Below are positions 8,900-37,470 of a stretch of 64,000 nt of DNA, one piece after another; position 1 is the first letter of the stretch, and each line of letters begins with the position of its first letter. Below the pieces are notes generated by a model, which made no database searches, had not been told where the DNA came from, and saw nothing but the letters and a program-made list of their open reading frames with translations. The position numbers were made by a program, and so were the translations under genes. The DNA comes from Ignavibacteriales bacterium (GTDB taxonomy: Bacteria; Bacteroidota; Ignavibacteria; Ignavibacteriales; Melioribacteraceae): contig JAGUYK010000025.1 of NCBI GenBank assembly GCA_020061355.1, forward strand, positions 47,815-111,814. The letters are read 5' to 3'.

Positions 8900-9577
8900 A
8901 TGAAGAAAATACTGATACTGCTTATTGAAGATAATAGACTTCTTCGTGATGGTATAGCGACGATGCTCAAGAAAGAGTCTGATATGCATGTTGTTGCTAC
9001 GGTTGGTAATGGCGAAAACATTCTTCTGATGATTGATAAAAACAAGCCGGATATATTACTTCTCGATCTCGGTTTAAGAAGTCAAAACAGTCTACAAATA
9101 GTAAAATTAACAAAGCAGAATTTTCCGGAAACTAAAATAATAGTAATGGATCTTGTACCGCTCCAGGCAGATGTTCTTGAATTTGTGCAGGCGGGAGTTT
9201 CAGGATTCATACTTAAAGATGCAAACGTTGCGGAATTTTATAAAACTATCCGATCAGTTTACAATGGCGAACAGATTTTACCTCCGCATTTAACCGGTTC
9301 GCTTTTTTCTCAAATTGTTGATTATGCAGTCAATGGATTTAAACCGTCTATAGTCGCAGAATCGGTTCGCATGACAAAACGCGAAAGACAGGTAATTGAA
9401 TTAATAGCAGATGGTTCTACAAATAAAGAAATTGCACAAAAACTTCACCTTTCGACCTACACCGTTAAAAGCCACGTTCATAACATACTCGAAAAATTAA
9501 CGTTAAATACACGAGTGCAAATTGCTAAACATGCTCACCTCTCAGATTCTTATAAAACTGATTTAGACACTACCTAA
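8900..9577 (+). CDS. NarL/FixJ-type response regulator (REC + LuxR HTH), paralog 1
   Basis: REC domain (E10-D11, phospho-acceptor D56 in LLLDLGL, K106 in GFILKD). C-terminal LuxR HTH: LTKRERQVIELIADGSTNKEIAQKLHLSTYTVKSHVHNILEKL. Confidence 0.9.
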   Translation: MKKILILLIEDNRLLRDGIATMLKKESDMHVVATVGNGENILLMIDKNKPDILLLDLGLRSQNSLQIVKLTKQNFPETKIIVMDLVPLQADVLEFVQAGVSGFILKDANVAEFYKTIRSVYNGEQILPPHLTGSLFSQIVDYAVNGFKPSIVAESVRMTKRERQVIELIADGSTNKEIAQKLHLSTYTVKSHVHNILEKLTLNTRVQIAKHAHLSDSYKTDLDTT

Positions 9578-9608
9578 TTAATTAACCAACAATAGACTGT
9601 CGTTTACC

Positions 9609-9653
9609 CGTCCAAAAGATGTAGTTCCTTTTTCATCCCTTTGACCGATTGAA
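9609..9653 (+). promoter_or_regulatory. conserved upstream element, copy 3
   Basis: CGTCCAAAAGATGTAGTTCCTTTTTCATCCCTTTGACCGATTGAA, starting 32 nt after the paralog 1 regulator stop codon. TTGAAT 9649-9654, 17-nt spacer, GATAAT 9672-9677. 99 nt upstream of ATG 9752. Confidence 0.85.
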
Positions 9654-9751
9654 TATCTCTTCATAACTGGCGATAATGGAGCCGTAATAAAAAATCTCTT
9701 ATCAAATAAGGGACGGATTTTTTATAAAGTAATAACCGATGGAGGTTCAAG

Positions 9752-10138
9752 ATGACGAATGAAGCAAAAGGAATGGGAAAAGGTCTGTTGATTGGAATTT
9801 TTACCGGCGCTGCTGTCGGATCAATCATTGCACTTCTCTATGCTCCTAAATCCGGTAAAAAGTTGCGCGAGGAAATAAAAACCAAATCACAGGATTTTAC
9901 CGAGGATGCCGAAAAGTATATTTCGAATGCTAAAAGGAAAGCGTCACATTTGATCGAAGATGTAAAAAAAAAGTTCGAATCTTTGGTTACTGAAGCTGAG
10001 GATAATGTAGATGCTATTCTGGATGAATCCGAAAAGGTTCTTAAAAACGCAAAAGACAAAGTTGAAGATTATGTCGAATCCGGTAAAGTAAGTTTAAGAA
10101 AAAAAGCAACCTCGTTAAATTCGCATAGGCGTGAATAA
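9752..10138 (+). CDS. YtxH-domain (general-stress-type) protein
   Basis: N-terminal GLLIGIFTGAAVGSIIALLYAPKSGKKLREEIK is the YtxH signature, followed by a charged helical region. SD GGAGG lies 8 nt upstream. Confidence 0.85.
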   Translation: MTNEAKGMGKGLLIGIFTGAAVGSIIALLYAPKSGKKLREEIKTKSQDFTEDAEKYISNAKRKASHLIEDVKKKFESLVTEAEDNVDAILDESEKVLKNAKDKVEDYVESGKVSLRKKATSLNSHRRE

Positions 10139-10173
10139 AATAGATATATAATTGAAAAGGAAGATTGAATAGA

Positions 10174-10554
10174 ATGACTTTAATTGATGTTTTTGTGATA
10201 GTCTTAATCCTTACGGCTTTCTCACTCTCTATTTTTGTTATTGTATTTTTAAAAAGAATTTACATGCAAGCAGTAACGGTTCAAAAAGATATTCACCGGC
10301 TTGTTGAAAATACAATCCCCGTTATGAGTAATTTAAAAGAGGTTACTGAACGTGCAAACAGGATAGTGACGGGAGTTGAGGGATACTATAATGAAGCTGA
10401 TTGCTTGATTAAAAATGTGCGTGAACGAATTTCAATCCTAACTTCTAATAGAAGATTTCGTTCTGTCGAGCGCCCCGTCAAGTACATAGTCAATAATATA
10501 AGGGCATTGGCAAGCGGCACTTCTGCTTTCTTGAATTCATATAAACATAAGTAA
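10174..10554 (+). CDS. DUF948-like membrane-anchored protein
   Basis: Single N-terminal TM helix then a helical region. This is the usual size and architecture of DUF948 proteins, which often sit next to YtxH genes. ATG 10174 preferred over TTG 10165. Confidence 0.5.
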   Translation: MTLIDVFVIVLILTAFSLSIFVIVFLKRIYMQAVTVQKDIHRLVENTIPVMSNLKEVTERANRIVTGVEGYYNEADCLIKNVRERISILTSNRRFRSVERPVKYIVNNIRALASGTSAFLNSYKHK

Positions 10555-35852: not shown

Positions 35853-35872
35853 CCAGTGTATAGAGCACTTTG

Positions 35873-35912
35873 AAAGTCCTTGTAAATTAAAGTTACAGGG
35901 ACTTTTTAATTT
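35873..35912 (+). terminator. rho-independent terminator
   Basis: AAAGTCCTTGTAA-ATTAAAG-TTACAGGGACTTT (one G:U pair) followed by TTAATTT. Confidence 0.7.
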
Positions 35913-35974
35913 ATAGGATATTAATCGCGGTAGTAGAAAAGTATGCCGTTACAAAATAAATATGGAGAATTTGT

Positions 35975-36469
35975 TTGAAAAAGTTCCGGTTAATATTTAT
36001 TGCACTTTGTATGGCTATTTTTTTTGGAGGTCTATTTGCACAGCATCGTCCATTTGGACTTGGTGTAAGCATAGGTGAACCAACAGGTGTTAATGCAAAG
36101 TTATGGACATCTGAAACCGGTGCTTTAGATTTTGGTGTTGGTTGGTCAATCGGCGGTGATCGAATCGGCAGTTATGAGGGTCAATATAACGGCGGCGGGC
36201 GTATACACTTTCACTTCGATTACCTCTTGCATCTGTTTGATGCGGTCGGTTCAACCGGACAGTTGCCAGTTTATTATGGAATTGGCGGACGATTTAATGC
36301 CGGAGCCGGATATTTAAGCTCGTTGGCAGTTCGTTTCGCTGTTGGACTTGCCTGGATGCCGCGGGAATCACCGATAGATATGTTCATTGAATTTGTTCCG
36401 TCGCTTCAGTTGACTTCTTTACCAGGATTAGCAATTGATTCAGCTATCGGTATCAGATATTATTTCTGA
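35975..36469 (+). CDS. small outer-membrane beta-barrel protein (paralog of 39696-40193)
   Basis: TTG start with GGAG 8 nt upstream. Signal peptide, alternating beta-strand pattern, C-terminal aromatic ...GIRYYF. About half of residues are identical to the 39696 product by eye. Confidence 0.65.
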   Translation: MKKFRLIFIALCMAIFFGGLFAQHRPFGLGVSIGEPTGVNAKLWTSETGALDFGVGWSIGGDRIGSYEGQYNGGGRIHFHFDYLLHLFDAVGSTGQLPVYYGIGGRFNAGAGYLSSLAVRFAVGLAWMPRESPIDMFIEFVPSLQLTSLPGLAIDSAIGIRYYF

Positions 36470-36780
36470 TGATATAGCGAAGATCTATAAAGATTTAATT
36501 GGAATGAAAGTGAAAAATATTAATACCCAACGATTATTAATGAAAATAGTTTGATAAGAATGGATAGAAAGCTTCCGACCATACTGTTTAAATATAGATG
36601 ATAATAGAAGAACTGAAATAAGAAATAATATTAAATAAAGAATATTAATTTCTGTAGGGGTTTGAGTTGTATGCCGATCGATGCCGGCTTGTTGTTCAAA
36701 CCCCGATCTTTTAGAAAGTAGTACCTGTTTATTTGTCATCAAGTATCATTATCAGAAAAAAAACTAATTGAGATTATAAA

Positions 36781-37470
36781 TTGAAAAAAATCAGATTACT
36801 GCTCATTGAAGATAACCGCCTTCTGCGCGATGGAATTCTTGGGATTCTTAAACCTCATAAGGATATTGTTATAGTCGCTGCCTCGGCAGAAGGGAAAAAC
36901 ACACTTCTAAAAATTCAGCAGTTAAAACCAAATGTGGTTCTTCTGGATTTGGGATTGCGAAGTCAAAATAGTTTACATGTAGTTGAAATAGTAAAGAAAG
37001 ATTTTCCTGAAGCCAAGATTATTGTTATGGATCTTGCACCGGTTCAGGCAGATATTTTACAATATGTAAAAGCTGGTGCTAACGGTTTTATTCTTAAAGA
37101 TGCATCGCTTAAAGATTTTCTAATCACTATTCGGGCAGTGGCTGAAGGGTCTACTGTGCTTCCGCCTCTTTTAGTCGATTCTCTTTTTTCGCAGATAGTT
37201 GATCACGCGGTAAGAGAAGGTAAATCTAAATTGAAGGAAGCAGTGCGAATGACAAAGCGTGAACGGGAAGTTATCGGGTTGCTTAGTGAAGGAATGAGTA
37301 ACAAAGAGATCGGTCATAGAATCCGGGTATCAATTTATACGGTTAAGAGTCATATCCATAATATTATGGAAAAGCTGGCACTTCACACACGATTGGAAAT
37401 TGCCAACTATTCTTACACAACTGATACTCTAAAAACAATTTCGAAAAGTATTTCGATGATTAATAATTAA
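36781..37470 (+). CDS. NarL/FixJ-type response regulator (REC + LuxR HTH), paralog 3
   Basis: The TTG start gives MKKIRLLLIEDNRLLRDG, co-linear with paralogs 1 and 2. VLLDLGL, GFILKD, MTKREREVIGLLSEGMSNKEIGHRIRVSIYTVKSHIHNIMEKL. Confidence 0.85.
   Translation: MKKIRLLLIEDNRLLRDGILGILKPHKDIVIVAASAEGKNTLLKIQQLKPNVVLLDLGLRSQNSLHVVEIVKKDFPEAKIIVMDLAPVQADILQYVKAGANGFILKDASLKDFLITIRAVAEGSTVLPPLLVDSLFSQIVDHAVREGKSKLKEAVRMTKREREVIGLLSEGMSNKEIGHRIRVSIYTVKSHIHNIMEKLALHTRLEIANYSYTTDTLKTISKSISMINN

Follow-up and report, generated by a model that had tools for sequence, protein, structure and literature searches.

A conserved composite promoter module and its candidate NarL/FixJ-type response regulators in Ignavibacteria

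The described systems closest to the one considered here are built either on response regulators of the NarL family or on alternative sigma factors. NarL and NarP of Escherichia coli read 7-nt half-sites, and inverted heptamers in a 7-2-7 layout are typical of NarL-family dimer sites; FixL/FixJ couples a cytoplasmic PAS kinase to a LuxR-type regulator acting at sigma70-type promoters; DosR (DevR) of Mycobacterium is an autoregulated NarL-family protein serving a multi-operon stress and dormancy set through one conserved box, a 20-bp palindrome; VraR and LiaR have a partner of the LiaF/VraT type; and the sigma-B, sigma-S, and EcfG regulons are those of alternative sigma factors. Here, we analyze a 64,000-nt stretch of DNA (hereafter, the window) from an Ignavibacteriales bacterium of the family Melioribacteraceae (assembly GCA_020061355.1, contig JAGUYK010000025.1, positions 47,815 to 111,814 of the forward strand). 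The window contains an island of gene cassettes led by copies of a conserved element of ~70 nt, the upstream half of a sigma70-type promoter, which heads 11 operons, and among these cassettes lie three response regulators composed of a REC receiver domain and a GerE helix-turn-helix (HTH) domain: P1 (8900..9577), P2 (23291..23983), and P3 (36781..37470), all on the plus strand. In kind, the regulators are unremarkable: they are NarL/FixJ-type response regulators encoded beside their likely regulon. Comparative data support a link between regulator and element across ~80 other Ignavibacteria genomes and mark the regulators as likely switches. Judged from sequence, we consider it reasonably probable that the island regulators bind the half-sites of the element and activate it, with the P1/P2-type proteins as the input and the P3-type protein as the amplifier.

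Each of the described systems resembles this locus in some respects and differs from it in others. The three regulators share the domain architecture of NarL and NarP and the use of 7-nt half-sites, and a 7-2-7 palindrome is present in some copies of the element, but they are not NarL orthologs: P1, P2, and P3 score 133, 138, and 132 bits, respectively, against the NarL equivalog model NF007935, for which the cutoff is 250, and reach no NCBIfam equivalog cutoff. In addition, the half-site reads RTCCYTT instead of TACYYMT, the kinase is PAS/HisKA-like rather than NarX-type, and an Asp occupies the position of NarL Ser87. The cytoplasmic PAS kinase, the LuxR-type regulator, and the sigma70-type promoters recall FixL/FixJ, with activation being predicted in the present case; however, a haem-binding PAS domain is not evident, a CheB-CheR-PAS protein precedes the kinase, and two further orphan regulators share the recognition helix. 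The likeness to DosR, namely, a NarL-family regulator, a multi-operon stress or dormancy set, one conserved box, and autoregulation, would hold here by inference, and half-site B (AGTCCC) resembles the DosR half-site, but in place of a 20-bp palindrome the element contains three half-sites (one inverted, two direct, with an 11-bp period), and the gene content is different. VraR is the best match among solved structures (5HEV, 1.4e-28), followed by NarL (1A04, 1.5e-28) and then DesR and DevR (3C3W, 2.6e-22), and many of the putative targets are envelope proteins (OmpA, Mla, outer-membrane barrels); nevertheless, a LiaF/VraT-type partner is absent, the kinase is of a different type, and Asp84 stands in place of the canonical Thr of VraR. 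Finally, the gene content overlaps that of the sigma-B, sigma-S, and EcfG regulons (CsbD, YtxH, DUF948, ferritin-like, and OmpA-like proteins), whereas the promoters have ordinary −35 and −10 hexamers with an upstream activator-type block, and the island in the window encodes no alternative sigma factor.

The comparative material comes from two scans. A genome collection searched through the regulator yielded 79 loci (up to ±10 kb; 1.21 Mb in total) from Ignavibacteriaceae, Melioribacteraceae, and related metagenome-assembled genomes, and a metagenome scan with a 26-nt element pattern yielded at least 120 contigs, on average 4.9 kb long; thus, all loci were selected through either the regulator or the element, and co-occurrence is read at the level of the locus or contig. 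Across about 200 loci, the anatomy of the promoter, the division of the regulators into two clades, and their positions relative to the element are conserved. In a logo of 237 copies, a 45-nt conserved block spans positions −14 to +30 relative to the start of an 18-nt core and ends with A-T-T-G at +27 to +30; a variable stretch follows, then a −10 hexamer, T(0.71) A(0.82) n n n T(0.91), at +51 to +56, and past +57 nothing is conserved. The block holds three RTCCYTT-like half-sites, and the overall layout is A (AAARGAT, inverted), GTA, B (GTYCCTT), TTTC, C (ATCCYTT), 7 nt, TTGa (−35), 17 nt, and TAnnnT (−10). By inspection, without statistics, half-sites A, B, and C are visible in the logo and in all 11 copies of the window. 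The TAnnnT motif is found at +51 in 186 of 282 copies from the genome loci and in 157 of 219 from the independent metagenome set, against 1–4% at control offsets (3 and 7 of 219 copies in the metagenome set), and with TTG at +28 to +30, TAnnnT occupies +51 to +56 in 66–72% of 501 copies, again against 1–4% at control offsets. Given this fixed TTGnnn-N17-TAnnnT spacing, the element is identified as part of a sigma70-type promoter, and the positions of the two hexamers predict a transcription start near +63. With this start as reference, the conserved block would extend from about −77 to −33, with the A/B pair centred near −62 and C, which lies 11 bp from B, near −45. Only TTGa is conserved within the −35 hexamer, that is, the −35 is weak, and the layout is the one expected for the site of a dimeric HTH activator beside a weak −35. 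We propose that the element is an activator-dependent promoter for a primary or primary-like sigma factor.

A variant of the element, in which the exact 16-bp palindrome AAAGGAT-TA-ATCCTTT (7-2-7 layout) replaces half-sites A and B, was found in 17 copies (L026 12003, L052 12416, L056 11540, L064 11539, L065 11569, L076 13064, L078 13332, and others), most of which lie just 3′ of P3-type regulators and 5′ of a second paralog of a B12-binding radical SAM enzyme. Because the palindromic and canonical variants coexist in the same genomes, the two types of regulators might discriminate between them. A separate possibility, that the element is mobile, for instance, a miniature inverted-repeat transposable element, was rejected, given its single orientation, its fixed distance to the −10, and the absence of terminal repeats.

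The linkage between element and regulator is tight throughout the data set. The regulator subfamily is large, with more than 100 clusters that are 68–76% identical to P2, and those that are named belong to Ignavibacteria. Within the 79 genome loci, the core (two mismatches or fewer) occurs 229 times in 72 loci, and a weight matrix built from those copies finds 284 matches in 77 loci, 277 of them on the strand of the regulator; in the remaining two loci, the sequence runs out no more than 61 nt from the regulator gene. Elements occur at 0.2–1.4 per 10 kb upstream of the regulators vs 2–6 per 10 kb downstream. For 65 of 78 P1/P2-type genes, a core starts 16–54 nt past the stop codon (mode 28–29 nt), where the local density predicts 0.7. 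An element is located within 300 nt upstream of the start in 29 of 44 P3-type genes and in only 1 of 75 P1/P2-type genes; in the 250 nt upstream of the latter, a search for shared motifs or half-sites yielded only AT-rich words. Among the 120 metagenome contigs listed (of at least 120), homologs of island genes are present on 84 and a regulator of the P1/P2/P3 family on 22, whereas chance would place a regulator on less than 1% of such contigs if a genome a few Mb in size had two or three of these genes. The 3′ end of a regulator, intact or as a relic, lies directly upstream of 104 of 503 element copies.

In the window itself, the three regulator genes are found where the first-pass annotation had placed them and align end to end, with 73% identity between P1 and P2, 57% between P1 and P3, and 118 invariant columns. 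All three have a receiver domain (Pfam Response_reg, E 7e-17, 3e-17, and 8e-14 for P1, P2, and P3, respectively) and a C-terminal four-helix HTH (Pfam GerE/LuxR, E 2e-18, 2e-18, and 3e-15), which aligns through the recognition helix of NarL and VraR. Of the long peptide runs said to be common to the three, LLIEDNRLLRDGI, KIIVMDL.P.QAD, and YTVKSH.HNI.EKL are indeed present in each, whereas AGVSGFILKDA and LTGSLFSQIV are confined to P1 and P2, their counterparts in P3 being AGANGFILKDA and LVDSLFSQIV. P2 is, as had been claimed, the sole paralog that follows a histidine kinase: a PAS sensor kinase (21966..23252, plus strand; HATPase_c 1.4e-25, PAS, and HisKA at 21 bits, below the cutoff) ends 39 nt upstream of it, and the sensor operon is opened by a CheB-CheR-PAS fusion protein (18837..21779, plus strand). 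P1 and P3 are orphans preceded by unrelated genes, P1 by a 361-nt AT-rich gap that follows a MarC gene and is devoid of the element and of half-sites, and P3 by a 311-nt gap after a 164-aa open reading frame (ORF). The latter gap contains a stable hairpin (36657-36705; −24.4 kcal/mol, z −3.55) 75 nt upstream of P3, followed by a degenerate element-like stretch (GTAGTACC...GTCATC). Element copies do follow P1 and P2, with the conserved block beginning ~30 nt (copy 3) and ~15 nt (copy 7) past the respective stop codons. The gene 3′ of P3 (37504-37875) proved to be a paralog of the gene led by copy 8 (29442-29768), with 48% identity and E 1e-36.

The description of the three regulators as closely paralogous, as if of one kind, does not hold. 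In a tree, the 128 locus regulators fall into a P1/P2-type clade of 83 and a P3-type clade of 45 members, and P3 is part of an ortholog group that is distinct and ancient: its orthologs elsewhere are 81–88% identical to it, compared to only 57% for P1, and the split between the clades is therefore old. One regulator of each type is present in 44 loci, usually with the P1-type gene first and the P3-type gene ~0.2–4 kb downstream. P2 clusters with kinase-linked orthologs in L021, L058, L066, and L071. The kinase has orthologs (64–74% identity) ahead of P1/P2-type regulators in about 10 loci (about 10 of 75 genes) and never ahead of a P3-type gene in the loci examined; the order CheBR-PAS, kinase, and regulator is kept in L008, L009, L021, L058, L066, L071, L145, and L169, and in general the genes that precede P1/P2-type regulators vary between loci. 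By these genomic positions, the P3-type group is usually a predicted target of the element and P1/P2-type genes are almost never element-driven, so that the three regulators are not equivalent. A feature of one lineage is a 287-aa sigma70-family gene, found together with a conserved 123-aa ORF 5′ of the P1-type regulator in L026, L054, L056, L063, L064, L065, L067, and L068 (at ~8400-9300, ~700 nt upstream of the P1-type gene). Its product scores as RpoD/RpoS-like, below every curated cutoff, and has an N-terminus that resembles the short primary sigma factor of the Bacteroidota group; the window lacks this gene, as do 71 of the 79 loci.

The residues expected of a receiver active site, E10, D11, D56, and K106, are 95–100% conserved in the 128 homologs of both clades and align with D13, D14, D59, and K109 of NarL. 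The conserved Thr/Ser switch position (T87 in CheY and S87 in NarL) is taken, in alignments to NarL, VraR, and DesR, by Asp84, a residue present in 98% of the P1/P2-type proteins and 93% of the P3-type ones and encoded at 9149-9151 in P1, 23540-23542 in P2, and 37030-37032 in P3. The recognition helix, TVKSH(V/I)HNI(L/M)EKL, is invariant in both clades, including the most divergent lineages; the three helix strings quoted in the first-pass annotation are exact, and their near identity is consistent with a single shared DNA target, as it had suggested. At the positions of the base-contacting residues K188, V189, and K192 of NarL, each of the three window proteins has K, S, and H, respectively.

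The element copies in the window, for which repeat and pattern searches give a chance expectation of 0–0.8, are all on the plus strand, each 5′ of a plus-strand gene. They are listed here as positions −14 to +56 relative to the core, with the core start after the semicolon. Copies 1 (1663..1733; 1677) and 4 (10816..10886; 10830) each drive an ice-binding-like protein (PF11999; 1705-3039 and 11001-12092) with a type IX secretion sorting tail; the mechanically assigned TTG start at 1705 falls inside copy 1, and the true start is likely the ATG at ~1774 that follows GAAGGG. Copy 2 (4009..4079; 4023) leads DUF3943-PAP2. Copy 3 (9607..9677; 9621), with its core 44 nt past the P1 stop and the hexamers TTGAAT-17-GATAAT, leads YtxH-DUF948. 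Copy 5 (12246..12316; 12260) leads KaiC-MlaE-MlaF-MlaD, in which the KaiC homolog (12478-14199) is full-length and has both domains (NCBIfam PRK09302, 738 bits vs a cutoff of 408). KaiC is a core element-driven gene, usually in this gene order, with 31 element-driven copies in other loci, and domain scans of the window ORFs of at least 100 aa turned up neither KaiA nor KaiB. Copy 6 (16812..16882; 16826) leads a 142-aa protein and a C11 peptidase, and copy 7 (23998..24068; 24012), with its core 29 nt past the P2 stop, leads DUF4398, DUF4398-OmpA, and CsbD; the 61-aa CsbD-like ORF at 25494-25679 is below the 100-aa size of the ORF list. Copy 8 (29303..29373; 29317) drives a 108-aa lipoprotein, the paralog of the gene 3′ of P3, and copy 9 (29949..30019; 29963) a 1507-aa protein (30067-34590), with eight to nine tandem 321-nt (107-aa) repeats and four repeats of 219–228 nt, and an OmpA protein. 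Copy 10 (38666..38736; 38680) leads DUF4382, a 165-aa protein, and an OmpA protein, and copy 11 (42284..42354; 42298) a B12-binding radical SAM enzyme followed by GT1 and GH130. The last 21 kb of the window contain no copy of the element; this region encodes glycan metabolism and, outside the island at 59396-62344, a separate pair of a histidine kinase and a sigma54-dependent response regulator with no element nearby.

Mapping of the window proteins onto the other loci shows that the same cassettes, each led by an element, recur in shuffled order: KaiC-MlaEFD; the P3-type regulator with 123-aa and 187-aa proteins; the B12 radical SAM enzyme; DUF4398-OmpA; the 165-aa protein with OmpA; the 142-aa protein with the C11 peptidase; LysE; YtxH-DUF948; ice-binding-like proteins; DUF4382; and DUF3943-PAP2. 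Among the first genes after 517 element copies, the P3-type regulator is the commonest (40), followed by KaiC (31), ice-binding/Big-repeat proteins (31), the B12 radical SAM enzyme (29), MlaE (21), CsbD (20), YtxH (19), OmpA proteins (15), and an AI-2E transporter (14); several PAS sensor kinases, as well as members of the ferritin-like and M48 peptidase families, are also element-led. By its gene content, this set looks like a stress or envelope programme. Clustering of the ORFs (at least 90 aa) from 199 loci, ~1.8 Mb in all, places the regulators in the largest cluster, with 150 ORFs in 99 loci, and reveals no other recurrent transcription factor save the sigma70-family gene in 8 loci of one lineage. 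Pfam searches at a relaxed threshold detected no DNA-binding domain in nine hypothetical proteins of the window island and no other regulators in the families that follow the element.

Some element copies are preceded by remnants of a regulator gene. Directly 5′ of copy 4, at 10677..10769 on the plus strand, lies a relic of a regulator C-terminus (KSYFHNIPG*LILNIRKNIAKHVHLSNSFK; 60% identity over 30 aa to P1, E 2.7e-5) with an in-frame stop, and directly 5′ of copy 8, at 29242..29316 on the plus strand, is a DNA relic of P2-like last codons plus spacer, 79% identical to 23937-24044; both relics belong to repeat family D13. Similar tail relics, some with in-frame stops, occur in four other loci (L007 ~1774, L029 ~14484, L051 ~15255, and L187 ~1174). 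Because such relics precede element copies that no longer stand behind an intact regulator, they suggest that the junction of regulator tail and promoter was duplicated as a unit.

Under the mechanism we favor, P1/P2-type regulators would be expressed from promoters of their own that lack the element and, in some genomes, within an operon with CheBR-PAS and the PAS kinase. Once phosphorylated at Asp56, they would bind half-sites A, B, and C of the element through the invariant helix and recruit RNA polymerase to the weak −35, thereby switching the cassettes on. The P3-type regulator shares this helix and is predicted to be element-driven; it would strengthen the response or extend it in time through feed-forward or positive feedback, and the output would be the conserved set of stress and envelope genes, including KaiC-MlaEFD, CsbD, YtxH, OmpA proteins, and ferritin. 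Of this scheme, binding, an activating instead of a repressing role, dependence on phosphorylation, and the order of the two regulator types are all inferred. Several observations weigh against this mechanism. Normal phospho-switching is uncertain because Asp84 replaces the conserved Thr/Ser. The canonical element contains neither a clean palindrome nor a 20-bp palindrome, and its spacers are conserved as strongly as its half-sites, so that another reader or a second factor may act at the element. No covariation between helix and site was found in the most divergent lineages (L069, L072, L074, and L079), in which both are invariant, and no canonical element was found upstream of P3 in the window, unlike the case of most of its orthologs. 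The counts of loci share ancestry and were obtained through the regulator or the element and hence are not independent. Furthermore, adjacency is weaker evidence than it appears because in a cassette island the last gene of any cassette precedes an element. The earlier proposal that the regulators control the element thus draws support from co-occurrence (77 of 79 loci, 65 of 78 genes, and 22 of the 120 listed contigs), whereas the adjacency on which it had leaned is in part expected from the architecture of the island.

The same features can be read in other ways. A factor encoded elsewhere, either an unlinked transcription factor or an RpoS-like sigma factor, could read the 45-nt block, with the P3-type regulators being mere members of the regulon and the P1/P2-type ones mere neighbors. 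The P3-type genes are clear targets of the element, conservation is unbroken over the 45 nt, spacers included, CsbD and YtxH are members of the sigma-B regulons of Firmicutes, and the sigma70-family gene does lie close to the P1-type regulator in one lineage; all of this would fit. However, the ordinary TTG-N17-TAnnnT promoter means that a sigma factor alone leaves the upstream conserved block unexplained, the sigma gene is missing from the window and from most of the loci, and the ~1.8 Mb of island sequence contain no further DNA-binding protein that recurs; we regard this explanation as unlikely, although it is the main rival. Should the regulators instead bind the element as repressors or anti-activators, or the two clades oppose each other, one turning the genes on and the other off, the presence of one helix in both clades would have them compete for the same sites, and induction of the P3-type gene from the element would suit negative feedback as well as positive. 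We consider this improbable, given that the sites lie upstream of a weak −35 (about −77 to −36), the usual layout for activation.

The proximity of regulators and elements might also be a by-product of the shuffling and duplication of cassettes, with the regulators controlling unrelated genes. Gene order is indeed shuffled between genomes while cassettes stay intact, and the tail relics show the junction of tail and element copied as a unit; yet shuffling would leave unexplained both the retention of this very subfamily in 77 of 79 loci, among families that differ by 35–40% in protein sequence, and the rank of the P3-type gene as the commonest cassette, and we give it a still smaller chance. 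Smallest of all is the chance we assign to the conserved block acting as RNA, be it a leader, a riboswitch, or a small RNA. A hairpin, AAAGGATG...CATCC(C)TTT, can be drawn in the block, but the −35 and −10 lie at fixed positions downstream, so that the block is not transcribed from this promoter; changes in the hairpin arms are uncompensated (copies 4 and 10), Rfam has no match at the gathering threshold anywhere in the window, and conservation ceases past +57. Based on the Rfam result, the lack of covariation between the arms, and the downstream position of the promoter hexamers, the RNA reading was rejected.

To our knowledge, no experimental work on gene regulation has been described for Ignavibacteria, which are widespread and for the most part uncultured. 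Our search of the literature on Ignavibacteria in connection with KaiC, promoters, or regulons found nothing relevant; the regulator subfamily, the promoter module, and the target set are undescribed there. We advance, as a tentative and perhaps doubtful generalization, that the island represents a class-wide general-stress or dormancy programme of Ignavibacteria, in which one composite promoter module is served by a cascade of two ancient NarL-type regulators in whose receivers the switch position is, unusually, an Asp, without an alternative sigma factor. KaiC would be among its core outputs, possibly as an ATPase or timer within a two-component circuit, and the regulon would have grown by copying of the junction between regulator tail and promoter. 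The analysis provides a defined promoter module, a candidate pair of regulators, and a conserved set of targets, which makes the idea directly testable. If true, it would reveal a regulon of the general-stress type run by a cascade of response regulators with no alternative sigma factor and would assign a KaiC from outside the cyanobacteria to a defined regulatory circuit.

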